This document shows positions 910 through 13,794 of a stretch of DNA of 64,000 bases, one piece after another. Numbering within the stretch: the stretch's first letter is position 1; each line of letters starts with the position of its first letter. Source of the stretch: Candidatus Poribacteria bacterium (GTDB lineage Bacteria > Poribacteria > WGA-4E > WGA-3G); NCBI GenBank assembly GCA_963665235.2, contig CAXXLX010000001.1, forward strand, positions 2,944,001-3,008,000, written 5' to 3'. The notes beneath the pieces are model-generated. The model was given only the letters and a program-made list of their open reading frames with translations, had not been told where the DNA came from and did no database searches. Position numbers and translations under genes: made by a program.

Positions 910-960
910 CACTTTCGGGACTGCAATAGAGCTTGATAAATCGTGCTTTTAGGAACAAAA

Positions 961-1701
961 ATGCTGACACAAGAAATGTTACAGGACGTGCCGTCGTTGC
1001 CGGGAGTCTACTTTTTTCATGGTGCCTCCGGCAAAATTCTTTACATCGGCAAGGCGAAATGCTTACGAAAACGGGTACGCTCATACCTGCATAAGGTCAA
1101 AAAACGGCCCACCAAGATTAAACGGTTAGTGCGTTGGACAACGGATGTGCAGTATCAGGTATGTCGCTCGGAGTTAGAGGCTCTTTTCCTTGAATCCCGG
1201 TTGATTAAGGAGCATCAACCCTCTTACAACACTGCCTTAAAATATGAGCGGAAATCGTGGTATATTCGGATTGACCTTGGGGCAGATTTTCCAGCTGTGG
1301 AGCAGGTATCTGAAATCCAACCGGACACAGCCCGTTATTTCGGCCCGTTTTTTAGTAAAAGATGGACAGCAGAGGCTATTGACGTTTTTCATCGGATTTT
1401 TCCGATTCGAACGTGTGAGGGGAATATTGTGCCGCGTCCGGGGTTTCGGCCCTGTTTCCAATATCATATTGAGCGATGTCAGGCACCGTGTGCAGCGTAC
1501 GTTACAAAAACGACATATCAGGCAATGATAGCAGATATAGTCGATTTGCTGGATGGCAATTATTCGGAAGTTTTCATATCCCTGGTCAACAAGCGAGAGG
1601 CTGCGGCGGCAGCACTTCAATTTGAAAGAGCAGCTGCCTTTCAAAAACAGCTCGAACGGATCCAAAAGGTCTTTACGTTTTTGGACGCGTATCGAAAATA
1701 A
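961..1701 (+). CDS. GIY-YIG nuclease with UVR domain (UvrC N-terminal/Cho-like)
   Basis: PGVYFF...LYIGKAKCLRKRVRSY, YFGPF, Cys cluster, ALQFERAA UVR motif; lacks the UvrC C-terminal half. Confidence 0.85.
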   Translation: MLTQEMLQDVPSLPGVYFFHGASGKILYIGKAKCLRKRVRSYLHKVKKRPTKIKRLVRWTTDVQYQVCRSELEALFLESRLIKEHQPSYNTALKYERKSWYIRIDLGADFPAVEQVSEIQPDTARYFGPFFSKRWTAEAIDVFHRIFPIRTCEGNIVPRPGFRPCFQYHIERCQAPCAAYVTKTTYQAMIADIVDLLDGNYSEVFISLVNKREAAAAALQFERAAAFQKQLERIQKVFTFLDAYRK

Positions 1702-1736
1702 TGGTAGGGATCACATGAAATATGGAGATGAGACAG

Positions 1737-1857
1737 GTCAAGGCACCCACCACCTAAAGGCGGGGCCTTGTGCTTCGTAGACATAAGTCCTTCCGAAGAA
1801 GTGTCTCACATCGTCTCCACAGGGGCATCCAAGCAGCCCCTCAACATGAAAGTTGAC
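1737..1857 (-). mobile_element. non-autonomous IS200/IS605 derivative (right end/omegaRNA-like), no tnpA/tnpB
   Basis: Minus strand reads CCTGTGGAGA...GAAGCACAAGGCCCCGCCTTTAGGTGGTGGGTGCCTTGAC, resembling IS605 right ends. Confidence 0.55.
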
Positions 1858-2217
1858 TATTTATTTTCGGAATAAGTCGTTTTGGACTTGATAAAATTTG
1901 TTAAATCGCCTTAAACGCTTGTGTTTATTAGGTTTTTAGCTTATCCAAAGTACCCAAGATTGATATAATATCAGTACTCATTACTGACCCGTATAGCGGG
2001 TATAATAAGATAATAAGATTGGTAAAGAAATGAAAAAAGTGTTATACTCTATAATATCGACCAAACGTATCATTCAATATGGGATTCCTTTTACTAAAAT
2101 TAGATTTTAGGCTGATGCTTTGGTCGGCAGGGAATCCCTACCTTTATTATCTTTGGTGGAAGGTCCACCGAATAAGAACAGGGAACCCGACCAACTTTTA
2201 CATTAAGGAGAATTCTT

Positions 2218-3056
2218 ATGTTAAAAATAAGATTAGTTCTGCTTGTAGTCGCGCTCTGTTTCCTGTTCGCTGTTCTGAATAGTCCTGCAGCGTCTGTCGA
2301 TATGTCCGCAGGGGTTTATGATGATAATGGCGATGGTAATGACACTGTCTTCGTCACTGTAGTCGCAGATGAAGACATATTGTGTATCGACTGGTCTATC
2401 CGGTCCACAGACGACACCTTATACCCTGACCCTAAAAAGCCCTTTTTATTTGAAAAGTCGGGGATGTATGGCACGAGATGGGTTTATGAGTCCTTCTCCA
2501 TCCCAGGGCACATTAAAGGCACAAAATATATGATAGAAGCAGAGGCCTGGTTCTGGGATGGAACAATTGCGTATCGGATACTGCTTCGGATGAGTTTCGT
2601 GTCTATAAACCGATCGTCAAAACCGGTGTTGGCAGTTTAACCGGTGTTAATGGTACTGCATGCATTTGGAGGCAAGAGTTTAATGGGTGGTCTTTCACCA
2701 TGAGTGGTTATGTCCGCGTCCGTAACGACACCAAACAGACCCTCACTGCACTCGGGTGGTTCCGACATCAAGAGTGGGATGACGAAGACGGCGATTTTAT
2801 ATCTGAAAAACGGGATACAAAAGACATGGTCTCCCTTGAACCGGGTGATGGGTATTACGAGAACCCCGATACTTCAACAATAGAATTTGTGCACGGCAGA
2901 CCGATGAGCCCGACTGACAAGCGTTTTTTTAATGCACATACTCACCTTCAGGTGGGTCTCACGCGAGGTAATGCTGAGAGAGACGACTGGGAGGCAGATA
3001 CAGAACAACAGACGGGGACGACTGCTGTAAAGTTTACGGATAAAGACAATCCATAG
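2218..3056 (+). pseudogene. secreted hypothetical protein split by a frameshift near 2560
   Basis: RBS AAGGAG and signal peptide at 2218; the frame of ORF 2700-3056 is open back to 2562 (NNCVSDTASDEFRVYKP...). Confidence 0.6.
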
Positions 3057-3121
3057 TCGTTTGTCCATAAAACCGGCAGGGGACACGTGCCCCTGCCACT
3101 CTCTCTAAAAGGAGCAATGTT

Positions 3122-4189
3122 ATGAACGGATACAAAGTCAGTATACTCTGCTTGCTGCTATTGCTGCTCGGGACAGCCGCCCACGCCAAAATCCTTTTCG
3201 GTTTCTTTCGCGATGGGGAGATAGGCAAAATAGGCAGTGGGGTGAAAGGTATCTACGTGATGGACGATGATGGCAGCAACCTGACACTTCTTATAGAAAC
3301 CAAAGACGAAGGTGGTTGGAAGTTGAGACCCAGCTCCGCGCGCTGGTCTCCAAACGGTCAACAGATACTGTTTCGGATGGGTTCTTCCCTCTATTTGATG
3401 GATGCGGATGGCACAAACATTCAGCGACTCCCAGAAACCAGTCATGTCCTTAGCGGTTCCTTTTCACCGGATGGAAAGTCTATCGTTTATGCGAGAGATA
3501 TTTATGAGGGTGCCAAGTTTATAAAACACACTATCACCGTGATGGAGCTTGCGACGCGCAAGACGAAAATCATTGCGGAGGAAGATGCTGTCAACTGCGA
3601 TTGGTCGCCCGATGGGAAGCAGATTGTGTATGATAAACCGTCGGGGGTTGGTGGTGGGGGGGGCACGATTTGGATTATGGGTGCAGATGGAGAGAACCCG
3701 CGCCCATTGATTCCCGCTCCGCCTAAGGGCAAATTTCGGACACACCGCCAAGTCCCGCGTTGGTCGCCCGATGGCAAACATGTTGCGTTTCTGCAAAGAG
3801 AGTATAGCTGGCAGCGGTGGCCGGGGCTGAATCCCACGTTTCTCATCTACCATGCACATCGGTATATGATATGTGATCGCGACGGTGTTCATATCCAACA
3901 ACTGCTGATCCCCAAAGACTACGAAGCGGTGAGTTTAGACTGGATGGATGATGGCGCCTCTATCGTTTTCACTGCAATCGCTGATGCTCCCATAGACGAA
4001 CCGGTCCTGCGCGATTTTGTGTGGCCCCCGAGTTATGTCTATAAATATCATAGACGGACAGGGGACATCATACAGCTCACAAACAATCCGGAGTGGGATC
4101 AGGTAATAGATTGGATAAGTGATGATGCGCTGCCTGTAGCCCCACACGGAAACAAAAAAAAAGTGACGTGGGGAGTGCTGAAGAAATAA
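3122..4189 (+). CDS. secreted TolB-like (PD40) beta-propeller protein
   Basis: Signal peptide; repeated WSPDG/FSPDG motifs; C-terminal KKVTWGVLKK. Confidence 0.9.
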   Translation: MNGYKVSILCLLLLLLGTAAHAKILFGFFRDGEIGKIGSGVKGIYVMDDDGSNLTLLIETKDEGGWKLRPSSARWSPNGQQILFRMGSSLYLMDADGTNIQRLPETSHVLSGSFSPDGKSIVYARDIYEGAKFIKHTITVMELATRKTKIIAEEDAVNCDWSPDGKQIVYDKPSGVGGGGGTIWIMGADGENPRPLIPAPPKGKFRTHRQVPRWSPDGKHVAFLQREYSWQRWPGLNPTFLIYHAHRYMICDRDGVHIQQLLIPKDYEAVSLDWMDDGASIVFTAIADAPIDEPVLRDFVWPPSYVYKYHRRTGDIIQLTNNPEWDQVIDWISDDALPVAPHGNKKKVTWGVLKK

Positions 4190-4387
4190 AACCTTAATTT
4201 ATTTTTGAGAGTGCTTTTATCATACCCACGCTTTTACCTGTGGCAGTCCAGGACACGAACACTGGCTTTTAGCAATTAGCAAGAGAGGAAATGCCACCCT
4301 CTGACGCCCGTCAGAAACCTGTTTAGGATCACAACATCTTGCTAATCGCCAACGGTCAACGGTTTCCAATAGCCAACAAAAAAGGAG

Positions 4388-4430
4388 CGGGCATTCCTCC
4401 CCGCGCTAAAGCGTCGGGGTCTCCTGCCCG
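4388..4430. mobile_element. IS200/IS605-type terminal hairpin remnant
   Basis: CGGGCATTCCTCCCCGCGCTAAAGCGTCGGGGTCTCCTGCCCG: nested palindrome with the TTCCTCCCC..TAAAG..GGGGT pattern. Confidence 0.5.
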
Positions 4431-4437
4431 AAGATTG

Positions 4438-4746
4438 ATGGACAAAGAAGTCCTTGGTGGGACTGATGGCAAAGCCCGTTGCAATTGTGGCAAGCTCCGT
4501 TACCCGCGTTATCCTATATGCCCTAAATGCTACTATGAGGGACCACAGAAACCCCCGAAAAAGTTGTCGCGCGAGGAATTGTTGAAAATGCAAACGCCTA
4601 AACGGATGCCACTCGCCGACCGACAGGAGCGGATACAATTCCTGCAAAAGCGTTACGGCACGCAATTGCGAGGAAAAGATATCCGATATATGAAAAATGC
4701 ACAGGTGTACGCCTTGTCAGAACAAGCAGGCTATAGGCGGAAATAA
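4438..4746 (+). CDS. small basic hypothetical protein with CxC...CxxC Zn-ribbon
   Basis: MDKEV...CNCGK...CPKC; the longer upstream ORF extension runs through the IS-like hairpin. Confidence 0.55.
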   Translation: MDKEVLGGTDGKARCNCGKLRYPRYPICPKCYYEGPQKPPKKLSREELLKMQTPKRMPLADRQERIQFLQKRYGTQLRGKDIRYMKNAQVYALSEQAGYRRK

Positions 4747-4762
4747 TTTTTGAAAATATTCC

Positions 4763-4791
4763 TTGACAAATAATTACAGCTATGCTACAAT
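4763..4791 (+). promoter_or_regulatory. sigma70 promoter for the HMA gene pair
   Basis: TTGACA-17 nt-TACAAT with extended -10 TG; RBS AAGGAGG upstream of ATG 4827. Confidence 0.75.
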
Positions 4792-4826
4792 AATTAATAA
4801 TCAATAATTCTGAAGGAGGAAATTCG

Positions 4827-5204
4827 ATGTATATCGCAAGACTATCACTGATTTGCCTCGTCGCCTTTGCATTCCTCATCGGTTGCGGCATGCTGAATAA
4901 GCAGGCAGAGATGACCGAGCCTACGCAAACCGAAACGGCTGAAGCTGTGACTGTGACGGAAGTGGTGAAGACCAAACCGGTCATAGAGGAAGTGACGCTT
5001 AAGGTAACAGGTATGACGTGAGGCGGCTGTACCAGTGCGGTGCAGGATGCACTCAGTCAGGTCACCGGTGTCTCTGAGGTTGTCAGTGTTTCTAGAAAGA
5101 CGAGTACGGCTGTCGTGAAGATTAAAAAGGGCAAAGTTACACATGCTGCCCTGATTCAGGCTGTTGAAGCTGATCCGCGTTTCAAGGCAACAGTCGCTAA
5201 TTAG
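4827..5204 (+). CDS. lipoprotein with HMA domain, selenocysteine UxxC motif (TGA 5019-5021 read through), 125 aa
   Basis: Lipobox-like FLIGC; VTLKVTGMT-TGA-GGCTSAVQDALSQVTGVSEV...KATVAN-TAG completes an HMA fold; SECIS-like hairpin downstream. Confidence 0.85.
5039..5053 (+). promoter_or_regulatory. SECIS-like hairpin
   Basis: G-GTGCA-GGA-TGCAC-T with a G-initial loop 23 nt after the in-frame TGA. Confidence 0.7.
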
Positions 5205-5265
5205 CAGTATGGAGGGGTGAGGATTACTCACTCTTTACGCTACCTCAAAAAGGAGCACGATTGAC

Positions 5266-5694
5266 ATGTTGAACAAATTTGCTTTCTGCGCTATCGTCCT
5301 TATGGTGTTCGCGGTATTTTTGGGATGCCCCGACTCACAGAAGGAATCCGATGATAAGGCAGCAGAAGTAGAATCTACGGAAAAAGCACCCCAGGCCGTG
5401 GTAAAATCTGCCGAAGACACAGAGGAAAAGGCAGCGGAAGCGGATGGGGCCGAAGCGACTCCTCAGCTCGCTGTTGAAGAAATCAGTTTAACAGTGACCG
5501 GTATGACGTGAGGCAGCTGTACCAGTGCGGTGCAGGATGCACTCAGTAAAGTCCCCGGTGTCTCTGAGGTTGTTAGTGTTTCTATGGCTGATAATAAAGC
5601 TGTGGTGAAAGCTGAAAAGGGTAAGGTTGAAACGTCAGCCTTAATCGCTGCTGTTGAAGCTGACCCACGTTTTAAGGCGACAGTTGCTGAATAA
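5266..5694 (+). CDS. paralogous lipoprotein with HMA domain, selenocysteine UxxC motif (TGA 5509-5511), 142 aa
   Basis: RBS AAGGAG; lipobox-like VFLGC; acidic linker; ISLTVTGMT-TGA-GSCTSAVQDALSKVPGVSEV...KATVAE-TAA. Confidence 0.85.
5529..5543 (+). promoter_or_regulatory. SECIS-like hairpin (identical to copy 1)
   Basis: GGTGCAGGATGCACT at the same offset from the TGA. Confidence 0.7.
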
Positions 5695-5703
5695 AACGCC
5701 TCG

Positions 5704-5758
5704 GAAGGGCGGGCCCCGCTCGCCCTTCACTTCTCAAATCTCTCATCTTTTTTCTTTC
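5704..5758 (+). terminator. intrinsic terminator-like hairpin after the HMA pair
   Basis: GAAGGGCG...CGCCCTTC stem followed by a pyrimidine/T-rich tract, located after the read-through stop. Confidence 0.6.
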
Positions 5759-5823
5759 ATAAACGCTTAAAACCTCATGCATGCCAAGACGTGTGGGGAT
5801 TCTTTTTTTAGAGGAGCATTCCG

Positions 5824-6999
5824 ATGCACAAAATAGAAGCAATCTTTCTAGGATGTACGTTCATCGTTTTGATAGTGCAATGCATCCCAACGTTTGCTGC
5901 AGAAATCCCCCCGGTATTCGAAACAATTGACCCGTATCTAGCCAACCCCGCCGCGGACCACATTTATGAAATTCCGGTCGTTATCATGCGGTTTTTACCC
6001 ACAGCAGATGGCGAAAATTTGGATGTGACCAAAGCACCCGACTTAGGGAAAATTTCTTTGACAGAACTGAAAGCGAGAATCGATACCTTTGATAAACGGG
6101 TTAAGTTTATGCTTGAAGAGGGGAGTCGATTCAGAGGATATAAAAATCCGACAGCACCGCCCTCGATAGGCTATCGGGTTGTTGAATATATTACTGTTTA
6201 TGAGTCGCCCCCGCTCGGCCCGATTATTGGGCACGAAGATGACCTTCCTGTCTATGCCCCCGATTTCCATCAAGTCTTCAAGAGATTCAACATGGAACAT
6301 TATGTTAACGAGCGAGGTGTCAAAGAGATTTGGGTGTGGATGGGGGCACGTGTTGGAACCGGCATTCCGAGGTCTGAAAAACGGTTACACTGGTGGGAAT
6401 CTAACATGTCAAGCCCGTTGACAGGCGACATCTCGAACAGCAATCGGGATAATACGGATTTACCGGTCTACAATTCCACCTATACCGTATATGGACAAAA
6501 TTTCGGACGTTCCCAAGCGGAAGCTGTACATAACCACGGTCATCAGTTGGAGGCGATATTAAGCCATGTGAATCATTTACAATATGGAAATACGGACCTC
6601 TTTTGGAAAAAGTTTGTCGGACAGGACAAGGATGGAAACTTCATCACGGGACGCGCCGGGTGGACCCACATGCCACCGAACACAACTAAGCATTATGACT
6701 ATACGGGAACGAGAACGCCTGTCGAAAGCGATATTGAGGACTGGACACCGGATAACAGCGGTGAAAAGAAATTGATCAACGTCGATACTTACGGTAATCT
6801 ACAATACCGATGGCCAGAGCCGAATCCTACCGAGATTCCGCAACGGGTGGAATGTCAGTGGTATATCTATTGGATGCAGAATATGCCGGGGTATCAGAAC
6901 CGAATTCAATATAATGGAAAAGACATCGCAAATTGGTGGTTGTTTACCGCGGACTGGGATGCAGCCATTGCCAGCGGGGCACGTCTTGTCTCCAAATGA
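5824..6999 (+). CDS. secreted hypothetical protein, possible zincin-like metal site
   Basis: Signal peptide, RBS GAGGAG, HNHGHQLE motif. Confidence 0.7.
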   Translation: MHKIEAIFLGCTFIVLIVQCIPTFAAEIPPVFETIDPYLANPAADHIYEIPVVIMRFLPTADGENLDVTKAPDLGKISLTELKARIDTFDKRVKFMLEEGSRFRGYKNPTAPPSIGYRVVEYITVYESPPLGPIIGHEDDLPVYAPDFHQVFKRFNMEHYVNERGVKEIWVWMGARVGTGIPRSEKRLHWWESNMSSPLTGDISNSNRDNTDLPVYNSTYTVYGQNFGRSQAEAVHNHGHQLEAILSHVNHLQYGNTDLFWKKFVGQDKDGNFITGRAGWTHMPPNTTKHYDYTGTRTPVESDIEDWTPDNSGEKKLINVDTYGNLQYRWPEPNPTEIPQRVECQWYIYWMQNMPGYQNRIQYNGKDIANWWLFTADWDAAIASGARLVSK

Positions 7000-7029
7000 A
7001 GATGTAGCTCTTTCATGAAAAGCAGGGTG

Positions 7030-7890
7030 CTACTGCTTTTTCGTAAAGAGTGGGTTGTCAAGCAGCGATTGCACCTCATAGATAGAGCCTTTCTTTTCCG
7101 AGTAAGGTTCCGGCATTCGAACCGGTGTAGGGACGATGCGGGGTTGATTCGTCGGCTCGCCACGGAGGATAAAGTCGTTAAAGGTGTCCCAATCCGGAAT
7201 ACCTTTTAGGGGCCAGGCATCTACGGCACAATATTGGGCGAGCATTAAGCGGCGCGGCGCGGCAGAGGTGTTTGGCGCGGAGCCGTGCAACGCTCTGACG
7301 TGATGAATTGAAATACCCCCCGCTTTTAGTTCAAGCGGCACAGCCCCATCAGGCGTGAAATCGGAGTCGGTCACCGCCCCAACGAATGCCCCATTTTGGT
7401 GATGATCTAAGGTTGGACCTTTGTGGGACCCGGGGAGTATCATCAGGGCACCGTTTTCGACTGTCATATCGTCGATGACAACACCGACTGCAAGCAAATC
7501 ATCGTTGGTGTGTGGATAAAACGCCCAATCCTGATGCCATTCTACAGGGCTGCCAAATTCCGGATATTTCATATTCAGTTTATGTCCATTATATCGAATT
7601 CCTGCTCCGATGAGTTCTGCGACGATGTCCAGGACTTTAGGGTGCCGCAAGGTTTGGTCATAGACAGTGTGATATAGGCACGGGTTTTTGATACGACGTA
7701 CGCGCGGCGTGGCAGGAGTATGCCCTGGCTCTAAATCGAAAATATCGGTATGTTCCGTGACCTCTCTAGATTTCTCAACAAATTCAGCGGTAACCTGTCG
7801 AAGTGCTGCTATCTCCTCTTCGGTGAGTACTGCCTCAACACCGAGGTAGCCGTTTTCGTCGTAAAAATTTCGTTGTTCTTGTGTGAGCAT
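7030..7890 (-). CDS. phytanoyl-CoA dioxygenase (PhyH) family protein
   Basis: WHQD, ENGAL..PGSH, HGS motifs; RBS AGGAGG before MLTQEQ. Confidence 0.92.
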   Translation of the reverse strand: MLTQEQRNFYDENGYLGVEAVLTEEEIAALRQVTAEFVEKSREVTEHTDIFDLEPGHTPATPRVRRIKNPCLYHTVYDQTLRHPKVLDIVAELIGAGIRYNGHKLNMKYPEFGSPVEWHQDWAFYPHTNDDLLAVGVVIDDMTVENGALMILPGSHKGPTLDHHQNGAFVGAVTDSDFTPDGAVPLELKAGGISIHHVRALHGSAPNTSAAPRRLMLAQYCAVDAWPLKGIPDWDTFNDFILRGEPTNQPRIVPTPVRMPEPYSEKKGSIYEVQSLLDNPLFTKKQ

Positions 7891-8046
7891 TGTGTAATGC
7901 CTCCTAATATAACTCAAGTTGCTACTTAGCTGTCCTTGTCCGTTGGGTTGAATGAAGTCCAAATCCGATTTCTTTCTCTTGCTGTCTGCTAATTGCTAAT
8001 TGCTAATCTTAGTATACATCAATACGTGAGATTCTGTCAATATTTT

Positions 8047-9147
8047 TTATGAGTGATTAAGTAGATGCTTATAAACATCTTGAATCTTTTGGATATGTGT
8101 TTCAATGCCGAATGCCGCCTCCGCCCGTCTTCGCCCCGCGGTGCCCATTTGGATGCACAGCTCAGGGGCCGTGGCGAGTTCTATAATTTGGTGTGCGATT
8201 ACCGCGGGGGGGTCTAACGGCATAATGTATCCTGTTACACCGTGAACAATCATTTCAGCAGTACTGCCGATAGAGGTCCCGATGACCGGCTTTCCAGATG
8301 CCATTGCTTCTGCGATAACACTCCCCGCTGAAAGTGTGATGAGGAGGTCAAGTTCTTGCATTGCTTCGGGCATATCTGTGCGGTGCCCTGATAAGCAAAT
8401 TACTTCGTCCAATTGACGTTCAGCTATCAATTGACGTACTTCGCGCAGGTACACACGGTGTTCGCGAGTATCTAATGCAGCACCGATAATATAAAAACGG
8501 ACATTTTGGTGGCGTGCGACGACCTCGGCGGCTATCTCAATAAACGTTTTTTGCTGTTTAAAGGGTTCAATCCTGCCGACTATCCCGACGCTAAACGCCT
8601 CTCCCTTCTTACTCTCTCTTACGGGAGCAGGACAAAAAACGGAGAGGTCAACGCAATTTAAAATAACATCAATCTTTTCTGAACAGATACCCGCTTGAAC
8701 CAGTGGAAGCTTGCTCTGCTCGGAGATAGCGATGATATGCGTCATTTCAGCGAACTGATACTTTTGCACCTGCTCGGGGGTGAGGACATTCCGCACATGC
8801 GAAACGGTAGGAATGCTTAGCTGTTTTCCGGTATACCAAACATAAGGGTTAAGCCACGAATCGGAAGTATGTATCAATTGCGTATTGTGCCGTTTTGCGA
8901 TTGCCGTTAGCTTTCTTGCGGCACTGTGTCGTGTGAGGCGCGATGTCGCCTTACGCCACGGCGGAAGATTGAGTATAACCGTAGGAACACTCGCTGCCCG
9001 TAAGTGGTCAGCGAAGATGCCATCGTCTGGACAGACAACTATCGGTTGATAACGGTTTCTATCTAAGTGTGAGACAAGATATAGGAGCTGTTTTTCACCC
9101 CCGCCGATGTTTGAACCGCAATGGCTGAGATAGAGTATAGGAATCAT
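8047..9147 (-). CDS. GT4 family glycosyltransferase
   Basis: GGGEK, VGRI, EAMASGKPVI. Confidence 0.92.
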   Translation of the reverse strand: MIPILYLSHCGSNIGGGEKQLLYLVSHLDRNRYQPIVVCPDDGIFADHLRAASVPTVILNLPPWRKATSRLTRHSAARKLTAIAKRHNTQLIHTSDSWLNPYVWYTGKQLSIPTVSHVRNVLTPEQVQKYQFAEMTHIIAISEQSKLPLVQAGICSEKIDVILNCVDLSVFCPAPVRESKKGEAFSVGIVGRIEPFKQQKTFIEIAAEVVARHQNVRFYIIGAALDTREHRVYLREVRQLIAERQLDEVICLSGHRTDMPEAMQELDLLITLSAGSVIAEAMASGKPVIGTSIGSTAEMIVHGVTGYIMPLDPPAVIAHQIIELATAPELCIQMGTAGRRRAEAAFGIETHIQKIQDVYKHLLNHS

Positions 9148-9179
9148 CGCTTCGACTCTAAAATACGCGGCTATAGACG

Positions 9180-10175
9180 TTACACCGGAAAATCGAGATG
9201 CTGTTCTCGGAAAACTTGACTGACAGATCTGTGCTGGTGGACCCTCAGAATAGCAGCAGCGAGAAGCGGTGCAATAGAAAGCACTTTGATTTTTCCATCA
9301 AGTCGCTTTTCGTCTGGAATAGGGATTGTATCGGTGGTAACCACTTCGCGAATTGAAGGGTGTTTCAGTCGCTCCAGTGCGGGCCCAACAAGTACAGCAT
9401 GCGCGATGCTCACATAAGCAGGCTTCGCGCCAGCTGCTGCCAGAGCTTGCGCTTGTTCGTAAATGCTCCCACCTGTTGCTATTTCATCATCGATAATGAT
9501 CGGGGTTTTTCCTTTTACCTCGCCGACGAGTTCAACGAATTCGACATCCTGTCCATCGTCCCCCTTCCTACGCTTGTGCATGATAGCTAACGGGAGGCGA
9601 AGGATTTTTGCGTATTTTTCTGCAAGCTTTGCACGGCCGACATCAGGGGCAACAATCACGCCGTTCTCTATCTGTTTTTCTTCAAAATAGCCTGCCAAAG
9701 TTGTTAAGGCGGTGAGGTGGTCCATAGGAATATCAAAGAATCCTTGGATTTGTGGTACGTGCAAGTCAATAGCCATAACTCGGCTTGCGCCGGCAGTCGT
9801 CAGGAGATTGGCTACAAGTTTCGCGCTAATCGGTTCTCTGCCTGTTGTTTTGTGGTCTTGTCGGGCGTACCCGAAGTATGGGATAATTGCAGTAATCTGT
9901 CGCGCGGATGCCCGTTTCATGGCATCAATCGTAATCAGCAATTCCATCAAGTTTTCGTTAGCCGGTTCACACGTCGGTTGAATGTGATAGATGTCAGTGC
10001 CGCGGATACTTTCCTCTATCTGTACACGTGTTTCACTGTTCGGAAATGGGCCGATTGAAATCTTTCCGAGTTCAACGCCTAAAATCGCGGCAATTTCTTC
10101 TGCCAAAGCCGCGTTTGCGCGTCCGGCAAATAGTCTGAAATCGGCGCGAACTTGCTGGTCTATCAATGTGGACAT
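9180..10175 (-). CDS. prs: ribose-phosphate pyrophosphokinase
   Basis: YFGYARQD, DLHVPQIQGFF, IDDEIATGGS. Confidence 0.97.
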   Translation of the reverse strand: MSTLIDQQVRADFRLFAGRANAALAEEIAAILGVELGKISIGPFPNSETRVQIEESIRGTDIYHIQPTCEPANENLMELLITIDAMKRASARQITAIIPYFGYARQDHKTTGREPISAKLVANLLTTAGASRVMAIDLHVPQIQGFFDIPMDHLTALTTLAGYFEEKQIENGVIVAPDVGRAKLAEKYAKILRLPLAIMHKRRKGDDGQDVEFVELVGEVKGKTPIIIDDEIATGGSIYEQAQALAAAGAKPAYVSIAHAVLVGPALERLKHPSIREVVTTDTIPIPDEKRLDGKIKVLSIAPLLAAAILRVHQHRSVSQVFREQHLDFPV

Positions 10176-10220
10176 GCCAAAATCTCCTTCGGGGTTGAAA
10201 CCCCTGCTTTAAGAGTAAAA

Positions 10221-11840
10221 TCAGATTAGCGATTCACCTGTCATCTCAGCCGGTTGTTCTAGGCCGAGAAGGCGGAGTGCCGTAGGTGCAATATCCGCGA
10301 GCCTCCCGCCAGTCCGGAGGGGGTGCCCCGTGAAACGTTCATCTACAAGTATGAGGTCAACGTCGTAAGTGGTGTGAGCAGTGTGAATACCCCCGGTTGT
10401 TGGCTCAATCATCTGTTCACAATTACCGTGGTCGGCGGTGACGATGAGGCTTCCCCCCTTTTTCAGTGCTGCGTTAACAATTTTTCCGACTCCCGTGTCA
10501 ACGGCTTCAACTGCCTTGATAGCAGCAGGAAGTGAACCTGTATGTCCGACCATATCTCCGTTGGCGTAGTTGAGTATCATTAAATCATATTTGTCAGACG
10601 CGATTCTGCGTAGCATCTCCGCTGTTACCGCCGGGGCTGACATCTCAGGCTTCTGGTCATAGGTAGTGACATCACGCGGGGAGGCGATAATTTGACGCTC
10701 TTCCCCAATGTAGGGTTCATCTCGATAATCGTTGAAAAAGAAGGTAACGTGCGGAAATTTTTCTGTTTCTGCACACCGAAATTGCGTTAATCCTACCTCA
10801 CTAAGATAAGCCCCGAGCGTATTGCGCATTTTCGGGGGTTTTGTGATGGCTGCTTCAACAGGCATTCCTTGCTCATACTCAGTCATCGTTACAAATTTAA
10901 CGCTTAATTTTCGATTCCGTTTAAAACCCATTTCTCGCGTGATACCGTCTTTTCCTTCCCCTTCAAACGGAAATGTATCCAGACAGAAAGCTTTGGCGAG
11001 CTCCCGCGGCCGGTCCCCTCGGAAGTTATAGAAAATAACAGCATCTCCATCAGCAATCCGGGGGAGCGGTTCACCGCTGCTGTCAACAACCACGGTCGGC
11101 CTAATAAACTCATCGCCTTTGCGGTTCGTGTCGTCCGGATGTTTGTAGTAATCACGGTAAGCATCTGTGGCAGCGGTTACACGTTCACCAACCCCCTCGG
11201 TCAGGAGACGATACGCTAGCTCAACCCGTTCCCATCGGTCGTCTCTATCCATGGCGTAGTAGCGTCCGACCACCGAGGCTATCTGTCCAATGGCAAGTGC
11301 TTTGGACTTTGCCTCAATCTGTTCGCAGAACTGAATGCCGAGGTCAGGCTGACAATCACGGCCATCGCTGAAATTATGAATTAAGACCTGATTCGCTTTC
11401 AACCCGTTCGCCTTGGCAAGTGCAAGGAGCCCATAGAGGTGTTCAAGTGAACTGTGAACACCTGCATCGCTTGCCAATCCCATAAGGTGTAAATTCGTGT
11501 TGCTGTTTTTAACATGGGCGATTGCGGCTAAAAGCACTCTGTTCTGGGCGAACTCACCGGAGCGAATCATCGTGCTGATACGCAGGAGCTCCTGATTGAC
11601 AATCCGTCCAGCCCCAATGTTCTGATGCCCGACTTCACTGTTCCCGATGACACCCGCCGGTAAACCGACATCCTCACCGGAGGTATGAATAAGCACGTGT
11701 GGATAGTTCTGCCGTAACCAATCATCTGTGGGGGTTTTCGCGAGATGAATGGCGTTTGCTCTATTCCATTCGGGGTGCGGGTTATGTCCCCATCCGTCTC
11801 GAATGATGAGCACAATAGGACGTTTTTGTAATTTTGTCAC
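10221..11840 (-). CDS. gpmI: 2,3-bisphosphoglycerate-independent phosphoglycerate mutase
   Basis: GNSEVGH, GRYYAMDRD, AETEKFPHVTFF, DMVGHTG, TADHGN. Confidence 0.97.
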   Translation of the reverse strand: MTKLQKRPIVLIIRDGWGHNPHPEWNRANAIHLAKTPTDDWLRQNYPHVLIHTSGEDVGLPAGVIGNSEVGHQNIGAGRIVNQELLRISTMIRSGEFAQNRVLLAAIAHVKNSNTNLHLMGLASDAGVHSSLEHLYGLLALAKANGLKANQVLIHNFSDGRDCQPDLGIQFCEQIEAKSKALAIGQIASVVGRYYAMDRDDRWERVELAYRLLTEGVGERVTAATDAYRDYYKHPDDTNRKGDEFIRPTVVVDSSGEPLPRIADGDAVIFYNFRGDRPRELAKAFCLDTFPFEGEGKDGITREMGFKRNRKLSVKFVTMTEYEQGMPVEAAITKPPKMRNTLGAYLSEVGLTQFRCAETEKFPHVTFFFNDYRDEPYIGEERQIIASPRDVTTYDQKPEMSAPAVTAEMLRRIASDKYDLMILNYANGDMVGHTGSLPAAIKAVEAVDTGVGKIVNAALKKGGSLIVTADHGNCEQMIEPTTGGIHTAHTTYDVDLILVDERFTGHPLRTGGRLADIAPTALRLLGLEQPAEMTGESLI

Positions 11841-11904
11841 ACAAATTCCTTTCTATCTGGTCCAAAAGACCGTGAAATCTTGTTTGAAACCTGCTATAAT
11901 ATTT

Positions 11905-12489
11905 TTATTCGGATTGCTCGAGTATGGCGCGTCTGTAGATGACATGCAAGGGCACCGCACAGTCAATTGAACTCAGCGGCAGCAGAGCATCAAGGCTCTG
12001 AAACGTGTCTTGATTCCACTGTGTTCCTTGGCGGTGATAACGTTCGATATGAATCGTGGCTTGTGAGATAAGGATGTATTCTTGCAAGGAGATAAGTCCC
12101 TGATACCGTTCGAATTTCTCACCTTGGTCATACACCGCTGTGGAGGGTGACAGCACTTCCATAATAACAATCGGGTTGAGGAGCGTGTCAAAGGTATCAT
12201 CCTCAAAACGCGGTTCATCGCGGACGACAAGGACATCCGGATAAAAGTAGGCGGATTTTGCTGGACCCGGTCGCACGCGCATATCACCGACAAAAACTTC
12301 ACATTCGCGCGCCATCAGTTGGCTGTTAAGGTCCGTTGCTGTGTCCACTGTAATCCGATTATGTGCGCGGCTTGCTCCAGACATTGCGATAATTTTCCCA
12401 TCAAGATATTCGTTTTTGAACGGTGCTTTGCGTTCCCAAGCGATGTATTCATCGGGAGTCAGATAGGTTTGTGCTGCAAGAGATGCCAT
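11905..12489 (-). CDS. Uma2 family endonuclease
   Basis: YFYPDV, EVLSPST..YD.GEKF; RBS GGAGG. Confidence 0.92.
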   Translation of the reverse strand: MASLAAQTYLTPDEYIAWERKAPFKNEYLDGKIIAMSGASRAHNRITVDTATDLNSQLMARECEVFVGDMRVRPGPAKSAYFYPDVLVVRDEPRFEDDTFDTLLNPIVIMEVLSPSTAVYDQGEKFERYQGLISLQEYILISQATIHIERYHRQGTQWNQDTFQSLDALLPLSSIDCAVPLHVIYRRAILEQSE

Positions 12490-12558
12490 AAATACCTCCA
12501 CAATTTGTGGGACGTTTTTTGTAACATGATTTTAACAAATTTCTAAGGAAAAATCAAG

Positions 12559-13794
12559 ATGTCATTTAAGTCTATCTTCATTTCGGTTTTTTTGGGCACC
12601 GTTCTGATTATCATTGCACTGATTTTCAATGCGAAACGCCCCGAGACAGACACGAACCAGCCGAGCCCTGATTTCATACGCGCGACTGGTAAGTGTGCTG
12701 CGTGCCACCGCCGTGAAACTGCCGCGGTTGTTCACCAATTCGAACGTAGTGAGCATGCGAAACAAGGCGTGACATGCCTAGATTGTCATAACGGTGTGGC
12801 GGGACAAGAGACACAAGCGCACCGAGGGTTCACGATTGCGAAACACCTCACTGCAAAGAATTGTAGTCAATGCCATTCAACGGAGTATACGCAATTCCTG
12901 CGGAGCCGGCATGCAGCCCCTGCCTGGGCAGCGGTGTCCGGGGCGAGAGATTTTACTACGGAACAGATTGCTTTCGCCGAAAAATATCACAAAGGGGCGG
13001 TGAATCGGCCTGCTAACGCATTAGCAATTGCAGAAGGTCAAAGTGCTATTAACGTCGGATGTTTGGGATGCCACGATATAGGCAAACCGAATGCTGATGG
13101 CTCCATCGGGACCTGTACAGCCTGTCATGCACGCCATTCTTCCTCTATTGCTTTGGCGCGCGAACCGCAGACCTGCGGACAATGCCACATGGGGCCCGAC
13201 CATTCGCAAATTGAAATTTATCATGAATCTAAGCACGGTGTCTTATACAATGCACAAAAGGCGGATATGAATCTCAACGCGCGCCCTAAGGAGTTGACTA
13301 CGGCGGATATGTTCATCCCAACTTGTGCAACCTGCCATCTCAGCGGGCTGGATGGTTTGAATGTGACCCATGATACAACCGAGCGGCTTTCGTATTGGTT
13401 ATTTGCGGCGGTCTCTGATAAACGTCCCACTTATCAGCAAGGCCAGGACGCAATGCAAGAAACATGTCTGAAATGTCACGCGCGCTCGCAGGTAAAACGG
13501 TACTATGAAGAAGCGGAGGACGTTGTCACTGACACGAATCTGAAAATTACCGAGGCTCAGGAATTAATGAAATCCCTTCGTGAAGCGGGTTTACTGACCA
13601 AAACGCCTTTTGATGAACCGATAGAATTCCTCTACTTTGACTTATGGCATTACTACGGGAGGACTGCGAAGCATGGGGCTTTTATGGGCGGTGCTGACTT
13701 CGTTCAGTGGCACGGAAATTATGAACTTTTGTTAAAGATGACGGAGCTGAAAAAAATTGCTGAAGAACTTAGGAGAAACCGTGAAAATCCGTGA
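12559..13794 (+). CDS. octaheme cytochrome c, hydroxylamine oxidoreductase (HAO)-like
   Basis: N-terminal TM segment; 8 CxxCH motifs; CGQCHMGPDH...EIY.ESKHG. Confidence 0.85.
   Translation: MSFKSIFISVFLGTVLIIIALIFNAKRPETDTNQPSPDFIRATGKCAACHRRETAAVVHQFERSEHAKQGVTCLDCHNGVAGQETQAHRGFTIAKHLTAKNCSQCHSTEYTQFLRSRHAAPAWAAVSGARDFTTEQIAFAEKYHKGAVNRPANALAIAEGQSAINVGCLGCHDIGKPNADGSIGTCTACHARHSSSIALAREPQTCGQCHMGPDHSQIEIYHESKHGVLYNAQKADMNLNARPKELTTADMFIPTCATCHLSGLDGLNVTHDTTERLSYWLFAAVSDKRPTYQQGQDAMQETCLKCHARSQVKRYYEEAEDVVTDTNLKITEAQELMKSLREAGLLTKTPFDEPIEFLYFDLWHYYGRTAKHGAFMGGADFVQWHGNYELLLKMTELKKIAEELRRNRENP

Follow-up and report, generated by a model that had tools for sequence, protein, structure and literature searches.

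The window analyzed here, a 64,000-nucleotide (nt) stretch of a Candidatus Poribacteria genome (contig CAXXLX010000001.1, positions 2,944,001 to 3,008,000), contains two paralogous genes in tandem on the + strand, which we call gene A and gene B. It is likely that both encode lipoprotein-anchored selenoproteins with a heavy-metal-associated (HMA) domain and a U-x-x-C site, where U is selenocysteine (Sec), and that they act as extracytoplasmic binders of soft metals. Under translation table 11, the pair appears as two short open reading frames (ORFs), 4827–5021 and 5266–5511 (+), that both terminate at ...TGMT-TGA. Translation of TGA as U extends the frames to a TAG at 5202–5204 in gene A and to a TAA at 5692–5694 in gene B, giving read-through products of 125 amino acids (aa) for gene A (P0001, U65, GMT-U-GGC) and 142 aa for gene B (P0002, U82, GMT-U-GSC). 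Each gene has a single in-frame TGA, at the first Cys of the GMT-C-x-x-C motif. Both proteins pass the Pfam HMA model PF00403 (cut-off 24.8 bits), scoring 39.9 and 40.9, in agreement with the initial annotation, which described both ORFs as stopping at GMT-TGA and continuing in frame as a GMTCxxC HMA domain. The features of the pair are:

4763–4791 (+): sigma-70-like promoter site upstream of gene A, TTGACA-17-TACAAT with a TG extension; 11 of 12 matches, a consensus match only
4814–4819 (+): putative ribosome-binding site AGGAGG, 7 nt ahead of the gene A ATG, by sequence reading
4827–5204 (+): gene A, predicted 125-aa lipoprotein-type HMA selenoprotein, U65
4827–4886 (+): gene A predicted signal peptide and lipobox, MYIARLSLICLVAFAFLIG followed by C20; all 50 aligned proteins have Cys at this column
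4986–5201 (+): gene A HMA domain, residues 54–125; Pfam match to residues 57–114
5019–5021 (+): gene A in-frame TGA, predicted Sec65, first Cys of CxxC; bridged by an RNA-library contig
5039–5053 (+): gene A candidate selenocysteine insertion sequence (SECIS) hairpin, a G.U pair plus a GUGCA/UGCAC stem, loop GGA at 5045–5047
5212–5236 (+): 10-bp hairpin between genes A and B, then UUUACG; fold energy of the 69-nt stretch -19.3 kcal/mol (z -3.1)
5250–5255 (+): putative ribosome-binding site AAGGAG, 10 nt ahead of the gene B ATG, by sequence reading
5266–5694 (+): gene B, predicted 142-aa lipoprotein-type HMA selenoprotein, U82
5266–5328 (+): gene B predicted signal peptide and lipobox, MLNKFAFCAIVLMVFAVFLG followed by C21; model helix at residues 7–18
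5329–5472 (+): gene B low-complexity linker rich in E/A/K/T, residues 22–69, predicted disordered (block-mean pLDDT 43–66)
5473–5691 (+): gene B HMA domain, residues 70–142, β-α-β-β-α-β, by Pfam and model
5509–5511 (+): gene B in-frame TGA, predicted Sec82; bridged by RNA-library contigs
5529–5543 (+): gene B candidate SECIS hairpin, identical in sequence to that of gene A, loop GGA at 5535–5537
5704–5728 (+): 11-bp G+C-rich terminator-like hairpin past the gene B stop; -20.8 kcal/mol, z -3.9

Genes A and B are identical at 35/36 positions over the 36 nt following the TGA, compared with 104/147 in the remaining downstream part and 17/27 in the 27 nt upstream of the TGA, so the near-identity of this segment amid divergent surroundings, a feature of the initial annotation, is confirmed. 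The sequence GTGCA-GGA-TGCAC is found at 5040–5052 and 5530–5542. The annotation had also assigned the pair its own promoter, and the sigma-70-like site at 4763–4791 agrees with this at 11 of 12 consensus positions. Its terminator-like hairpin past the extended stop is present as a structure, but the 11-bp hairpin at 5704–5728 has no adjoining U-run and a terminator scan gave no call there. The hairpin between genes A and B could attenuate or stabilize the transcript. The window contains no tRNA genes.

To place the in-frame TGA among relatives, we carried out a six-frame search of the genome itself (G000) and 40 relatives (4 families, 13 genera, one order). All 41 genomes hold matches, and most among the matches listed are flagged as carrying one TGA. 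We analyzed 40 loci from 37 of the 41 genomes (G010, G013, G017 and G021 were left out), finding HMA domains with a two-sequence profile made from the window's own domains after translating all frames with TGA as U. Among the resulting 78 domains, 64 have a U-x-x-C site, five U-x-x-x-C and nine C-x-x-C, so that the column holds 69 TGA codons and nine Cys codons. The second Cys of the site is retained in 69 of 69 Sec domains, and the nine Cys forms comprise repeats at the C-terminal end of four multi-domain proteins and the two genes of one locus (L043). The TGA therefore aligns with Cys and is conserved among read-through homologues from 37 genomes, a recurrence well beyond chance, rather than being unique to this assembly. 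In a sample drawn evenly from the phylum, 137 of 151 genomes match the gene B protein (P0002) at E ≤ 1e-8: by family, 98/99 in f1, 10/10 in f2, 26/26 in f3, 1/4 in f4, 1/1 in f7 and 0/10 in f5, f6, f8 and f9 together. All 150 among the matches listed carry one TGA, and 126 further matches exist. In named public records, the close relatives are titled Poribacteria (3 of 80 loci, 56–69% identity), and the other 77 loci come from other phyla (33–58% identity over the HMA part).

The sequence beyond the TGA evolves as coding sequence. Within the window pair, the codons beyond the hairpin have nonsynonymous and synonymous differences per site (pN, pS) of 0.213 and 0.507, corresponding to corrected distances (dN, dS) of 0.25 and 0.845. 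Across Sec domains, we kept 1316 of 2346 pairs (defined distances with dS > 0.05, saturated or too-close pairs being dropped); the median dN/dS is 0.25, no value reaches 1 and 94% stay under 0.5. Restricting the set to the 130 pairs whose dS is 0.1–1 gives a median of 0.26 and a maximum of 0.81. The downstream codons are thus under purifying selection. Metatranscriptome contigs from three libraries of one other study cover 4959–5735 at 88–100% identity. The first TGA is spanned, without mismatch, by a contig at 4987–5055 that extends 31 nt or more to either side; the second TGA is spanned by two contigs (5299–5545), and the intergenic hairpin by contigs at 5187–5328. No variant is listed at either TGA. 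These contigs come from related strains and are uninformative on level or transcript ends, and we draw no conclusion from the lack of cover over 4700–4958 or past 5735.

The genome (5.31 Mb in 4 contigs, 92.6% complete, 5.65% contamination) contains the Sec machinery. A search for selA, selB, selC and selD, proposed in the initial annotation, located all four: selA (520 bits) on contig C2; a SelB winged-helix domain in a 645-aa frame on contig C1; tRNA-Sec (ARAGORN, anticodon tca) at C1:2395242–2395335, adjoining selB; and selD (359 bits) on contig C1, itself with one in-frame TGA. The genes for SelB, tRNA-Sec and SelD thus share the window's own contig, C1. SelA turns up in 40 of 41 order-sample genomes; the one without it is an 86%-complete assembly. 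Of the window's 39 stop-to-stop frames that reach 250 codons or more, 12 end in TGA, and judged from such frames the codon is not generally reassigned in this organism. The initial annotation had named three outcomes that would overturn it, namely missing Sec machinery, a TGA confined to this assembly among Cys-bearing relatives, and downstream codons free of purifying selection; none of them is seen.

The hairpin downstream of each UGA

The initial annotation had likened GTGCA-GGA-TGCAC to the upper stem of the E. coli fdhF SECIS. Its role as a SECIS-type stem is upheld by comparison across relatives, through a consensus fold, compensatory changes and suppressed synonymous variation. We aligned 60–63 nt from each TGA (alignment A1; 67 distinct sequences, 2 of 69 being dropped as exact duplicates), for which RNAalifold gives a single consensus hairpin at columns 24–29/33–38 with a three-base loop. 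The candidate SECIS is a 6-bp hairpin with a G-first triloop (GUGCA-GNN-UGCAC), the stem beginning 20 nt and the loop 26 nt after the U of UGA. The closing pair is A-U in 59 sequences, G-C in 6, G-U in 1 and A-A in 1; the third pair is G-C in 62, G-U in 4 and A-U in 1; and the outer pair is A-U in 37, G-U in 27 and U-U in 3. Compensatory changes are seen from A-U to G-C in six sequences and from G-C to A-U in one. With a seventh, outer pair included, 92.5% of 469 cells are paired; sliding the 3' partners never yields more than 49.5%, and none of 500 shuffles reaches either the observed pairing or the covariation score. The bacterial SECIS (bSECIS) model carries numerical limits as well as a criterion of a stem-loop with an apical G, and the hairpin fits the latter.

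The strongest evidence for this putative recoding signal is the frozen choice of codons across the stem. In the 69 Sec domains, Val is encoded by GTG in 68/69 cases, Gln by CAG in 62/62, Asp by GAT in 31/31, Ala by GCA in 64/64 and Leu by CTN in 69/69, while other Val, Ala and Leu columns that are equally conserved use four to six codons (for example Val GTC 20, GTT 17, GTG 15 and GTA 6). The stem also distinguishes Sec from Cys domains. All six pairs are intact in 65/69 Sec domains, the other four having five pairs, and in 0/9 Cys domains, where 5, 5, 5, 5, 4, 4, 3, 3 and 2 pairs are left. The loops of the Sec domains are GGA (32), GUC (17), GGC (16) and GGG (4), with the first base invariably G.

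A degenerate form of the hairpin motif occurs 13 times in the genome. In four cases a TGA lies in frame 21 or 24 nt ahead of it: in the two window genes, in a third HMA gene and at C2:685192, a site within a 46-codon frame that we took for a chance match. The genome's own selD (locus L004, G000:C1:3841015–3841941), which is a selenoprotein gene too, has its UGA in CAG-U-ASK, the customary position, followed by AGCUCC-GGG-GGAGCU, a comparable 6-bp stem with a G-first (GGG) triloop; this hairpin was read by eye, and the computed minimum-energy fold of its 60 nt is a different one.

Several relatives depart from the simple form of the family. Five genes of family f4 (loci L040, L041, L044, L045 and L046) have a U-G-x-x-C site, with one extra residue between Sec and Cys. 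The extra codon shifts their hairpin by 3 nt. Four of the five close it by G-C and one by G.U (GUGCG-GUC-CGCAC). Four relatives encode multi-domain proteins with several HMA repeats per chain (L009, 2U+3C; L012, 3U+1C; L025, 3U+1C; L047, 3U+2C), in which the Sec repeats precede the Cys repeats. Every UGA is followed by a hairpin of its own, whose counterpart in the Cys repeats has decayed. The N-termini of these proteins lack a lipobox, and we read them as ordinary signal peptides of secreted proteins; the chains would be bacterial proteins with several Sec residues.

A third Sec-HMA gene is present in the same genome, at G000:C1:2847210–2847410 (-) (locus L028, 1486–3111 (-)). Its predicted product, of 541 aa, begins with a signal-like sequence, bears a CQGCHH (CxxCH-type) region and a WD40 β-propeller, and ends in an HMA domain with GMT-U-GGC; the gene carries the same GTGCAGGATGCAC hairpin as the window pair. 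Frames of this type, of ~527–590 aa with one TGA, recur in most relatives.

Protein architecture and genomic setting

The single-domain proteins of the family share a K/R N-terminus, a hydrophobic stretch and a lipobox. A pattern test with a regular expression of our own matches the lipobox in 58/60 single-domain frames (LIG before C20 and FLG before C21 in the window pair), and the two misses retain a Cys past the hydrophobic stretch (...LFINC and ...LAWGC). In an alignment of 50 proteins, the invariant columns are the lipobox Cys (C21), U/C82, C85, V89, L93, G98 and V99. The tether between the lipobox Cys and the HMA domain is of low complexity and ranges from 10 to 55 aa among relatives. 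For gene B, AlphaFold2 run with the 50-protein alignment gives block means of the predicted local distance difference test (pLDDT) of 89–97 for residues 71–142 and 43–66 for residues 21–70. The lipobox-like signals and flexible linkers noted in the initial annotation are therefore retained here as conserved features of both proteins.

The gene B model has the ferredoxin-like fold of HMA domains, with strands at 70–78, 99–106, 111–117 and 137–140 and helices at 85–94 and 123–130, with U82 and C85 between β1 and α1. Its best match in the Protein Data Bank (PDB) is MerP (1osd_A, 'Oxidized MerP'; E 4.9e-6, template-modeling (TM) score 0.89 by target, root-mean-square deviation 1.6, 36% identity). 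The other top solved matches are the metal-binding domains of ATP7B and plant HMA7 and CopZ (6ff2), and sequence search agrees; TM scores by target against the MerP, CopZ and ATP7B domains are 0.84–0.91. Both proteins are predicted to be exported lipoproteins, with a disordered tether and a C-terminal HMA domain of the CopZ/MerP type, which would be lipidated and held at the membrane.

We scanned 12 ORFs of the window (943–13794) and found no metal pump (including P1B ATPase), MerT, reductase or metal regulator among them. The products of these ORFs are a GIY-YIG protein, a PD40 β-propeller, PhyH, a glycosyltransferase, PRPP synthetase, phosphoglycerate mutase, Uma2, a multihaem cytochrome and four proteins without a Pfam match. 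Just upstream of the pair, at 4438–4746 (+), lies a gene for a basic, Cys-rich (CxC...CxxC) protein of ~102 aa, and just downstream, at 5824–6999 (+), one for a 391-aa protein with a hydrophobic N-terminus; neither has a match in Pfam or NCBIfam. Synteny is confined to family f1, where the small Cys-rich ORF recurs upstream (seven close loci and one weak) and the 391-aa protein (six loci) and PhyH recur downstream. In other families the flanks differ, with a TPP enzyme, cytochrome c, TPR and GFO/IDH proteins. Among 53 flanking frames, hand-chosen from 104 long ones within ~1.5 kb of the genes in 20 relatives' loci, there are no metal-homeostasis genes. The description of the pair as stand-alone, with no adjacent P1B ATPase, MerT or regulator, thus holds in the window and for ~1.5 kb around the genes in those loci. 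Elsewhere in the genome we identified one P1B-type ATPase (L129, G000:C1:2257475–2259484, -; 669 aa), ~690 kb from the gene pair, with a CPC motif and no HMA domain. A second P-type ATPase match is a 921-aa frame (L130), and there is one SCO1 homologue.

Competing readings

In both genes the UGA is very probably recoded to Sec. In the corresponding model, the two paralogous genes would make up a single small unit, preceded by a promoter-like site and followed by a hairpin. Decoding of the UGA would place Sec at the first of the two metal ligands, SelB and Sec-tRNA(Sec) being recruited by the 6-bp, G-first-triloop hairpin inside the V-Q-x-A-L codons. The mature protein would be tethered to the membrane on its extracytoplasmic side, where the selenolate (U) and the thiolate (C) of U-x-x-C would bind a soft metal between them, Cu(I) or Hg(II) being the likeliest, to sequester it or hand it on. 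That the site is a soft-metal Se–S site of the Cu(I)/Hg(II) type we infer from the fold, the GMTCxxC-type motif and knowledge of the family; a role as a 'capture system', in detoxification or in delivery, would be a further step of inference.

Several observations weigh against this reading. The hairpin is weak and unremarkable on a single sequence (-6.1 kcal/mol, z -1.45), the 57–81-nt stretches past each TGA have z values of -0.1 to -1.0, and the two genes give two different minimum-energy folds. The case for a SECIS rests on comparison across kin, so that the domain counts given above are not independent events. Rfam, run on the whole window at gathering thresholds, returns no match, and at a permissive threshold over 4950–5750 it returns only three chance-level matches (E 1.8–5.1, to miRNA and sRNA models). 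A second hairpin, at A1 columns 12–18/24–30 (window 5028–5046 and 5518–5536), is 86.8% paired across the 67 sequences. The two hairpins are mutually exclusive, sharing a strand that is the 3' arm of this one and the 5' arm of the other, and since the second is also 86.8% paired the exact boundaries of the SECIS are unsettled. This pairing is 85.1% in shuffles, most of its columns tolerate G.U, and one pair alone changes on both sides. We considered the second hairpin as the SECIS itself and rejected it, as its loop would start only 12 nt after the UGA and the synonymous constraint sits on the 3' arm of the other hairpin; it may instead have a role such as occluding or timing SECIS formation. 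On the protein side, the lipobox was tested by our regular expression alone. The RNA-library contigs may contain DNA and come from one study. Neither MerT nor PCuAC was found in the 92.6%-complete genome, and because no transporter, reductase or metal-sensing regulator neighbors the pair here or in relatives, the context is silent on the metal and on the role.

Two alternatives concern the codon itself. Were the TGAs true stops, the pair would consist of pseudogenes, of split genes (each giving a short lipopeptide and, by separate translation, a 54-aa C-terminal piece starting from GTG at 5040 or 5530) or of sequencing errors. ORF calling with table 11 does yield such halves, and gene B is represented in a public protein collection by a truncated protein of 81 aa (P0003). 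We nevertheless give this explanation next to no credence: the same TGA recurs across 37 genomes (69 domains), in 137 of 151 genomes of the phylum sample and in contigs from independent runs, the sequence downstream has a dN/dS of ~0.25, and the 54-aa pieces lack strand β1 and both metal ligands. Split genes are further disfavored because the seven codons from TGA to GTG, including that of the Cys kept in 69 of 69 Sec domains, would stay untranslated. It is very improbable, too, that the TGA is decoded as something other than Sec, whether by general reassignment to Trp or Gly or by near-cognate read-through with Trp or Cys. Ten of the 12 full-length public relatives that we retrieved do read GMTW..C. 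However, TGA ends 12 of 39 long frames in the window, while the SelA and SelB frames have no internal stops; the TGA is found only at the metal-ligand Cys column, where it alternates with Cys alone and where Trp or Gly would destroy the site; and it is accompanied by a dedicated hairpin that decays in the Cys forms, in a genome with complete Sec machinery.

Other possibilities accept exported selenoproteins and differ in what the site does. U-x-x-C could be a redox centre, a selenenylsulfide/selenol-thiol couple like that of thioredoxin-fold UxxC selenoproteins, which would reduce or oxidize an extracytoplasmic substrate or metalloid instead of only holding a metal; we consider this improbable. 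Most catalogued bacterial UxxC selenoproteins resemble thiol oxidoreductases (PMC1976440, PMC13188914). The pair has no metal-homeostasis neighbor that we found, the top structural match, 1osd, is a MerP crystal form with an oxidized site, and the genome's third Sec-HMA domain shares its chain with a WD40 propeller and an N-terminal region that bears CxxCH. In fold and motif, however, the window proteins match HMA metal binders (GMTCxxC in the β1–α1 loop), the solved relatives listed are all metal-binding domains, and the occurrence of Cys- and Sec-form domains in one chain fits graded metal sites at least equally well. A broader scheme goes beyond the reading of the pair as membrane-anchored soft-metal binders and is, in our view, speculative and rather unlikely. 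In this scheme, the Sec-HMA lipoproteins, the multi-Sec arrays and the CxxCH/WD40 Sec-HMA protein would make up an order-wide, extracytoplasmic, selenium-based metal-handling network that replaces the usual cytoplasmic route from HMA chaperone to pump. It draws on the observation that the sole identified P1B ATPase has no HMA domain; the substrate of the Se–S site, for capture, relay or redox processing, would then be Cu, Hg or a metalloid from a metal-rich sponge environment.

Relation to known systems

Both proteins fall below every curated NCBIfam cut-off, and Pfam HMA is the only curated family model that they pass. A literature search (supplements lay outside it) returned no paper describing this family of Sec-HMA lipoproteins, and the terms 'PF00403' and 'lipoprotein' occur 0 times in the review PMC13188914. 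In public protein data, the relatives P0004–P0023 include some full-length proteins with Trp at the UGA position and others that end at GMT, and none of the 22 relatives listed carries a name. The Trp arises because gene callers evidently applied a TGA=Trp code to short contigs. With its genes miscalled and unnamed, the family is effectively missing from annotation and from the selenoprotein lists that we checked, though it occurs in nearly every genome of the main Poribacteria order. Public gene calls thus mishandle such genes in two ways, splitting them in two or, on short contigs, reading UGA as Trp.

The statement in the initial annotation that Sec-containing MerP/HMA domains are already known is supported by catalogued selenoprotein entries. 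Excerpts of PMC2398784 list, among the selenoproteins of the Global Ocean Sampling (GOS) metagenome, 'Mercuric transport protein MerP' with 2 sequences; they give no motif or sequence for this entry, so that its identity with the window family cannot be judged. Portions of PMC13188914 and PMC9312934 describe a cation-transporting P-type ATPase selenoprotein with a UxxC motif (TIGR01525; example ABB15669.1), and a single literature passage names Poribacteria among the phyla with Sec-containing hydrogenase variants.

MerP (TIGR02052; 1osd, 1afi) resembles the window proteins as an exported single HMA domain with GMTCxxC, is their best structural match, and has a Sec form reported from marine metagenomes. 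They score 34.8 and 37.8 bits against its cut-off of 92.55. No MerR, MerT or MerA of a mer operon occurs among the 12 window ORFs scanned or in the 53 flanking frames of relatives. MerP is also a soluble periplasmic protein, whereas the window proteins are predicted to be lipid-anchored through a tether. The ATPase selenoprotein of TIGR01525 has the UxxC motif in common with them, but the window proteins, at 125 and 142 aa, are stand-alone and have no ATPase domain. With respect to topology, its UxxC presumably lies in an N-terminal HMA domain, which would be the cytoplasmic N-terminus of a membrane pump.

CopZ/Atx1-type chaperones (NF047957 CopZ_AFE_1862, NF033795 and NF033794; 6ff2, 1cpz) have the same fold and motif position, and NF047957 is the best NCBIfam match. 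The scores of the two proteins are 52.5/58.6 bits for NF047957, 43.3/43.6 for NF033795 and 40.0/38.4 for NF033794, against cut-offs of 85, 91 and 95. CopZ proteins are cytoplasmic Cys proteins of ~65–70 aa without signal peptides; the window proteins differ from them in their signal peptide, lipobox and predicted Sec. NF045683, 'MerT/CopZ fusion-like heavy metal transport selenoprotein', is likewise a selenoprotein with a CopZ-like HMA module, but the two proteins reach 34.2 and 32.9 bits where its cut-off is 375, and the window family has no MerT membrane domain. NF041115, 'UxxU_metal_bind', is alike in being a small HMA-type domain with Sec in the CxxC site and is the second-best NCBIfam match (E 2.8e-13 and 3.5e-13; 49.8 and 49.5 bits against a cut-off of 95). 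Its 74-position profile has UxxU, whereas the window family has one Sec (UxxC or UxxxC) together with a lipoprotein signal and a long tether.

The compact, well-defined SECIS and the natural pairs of Sec and Cys paralogues within the same chains would make these proteins a good test system, both for what Sec adds to a soft-metal site and for the decoding of closely spaced UGA codons. Sec-HMA proteins being already catalogued, the pair represents no new kind of system. It belongs to an unannotated family with a new architecture. Through this family a rare class, HMA chaperone folds that use Sec to bind metal, is extended to exported proteins predicted to be lipid-anchored.

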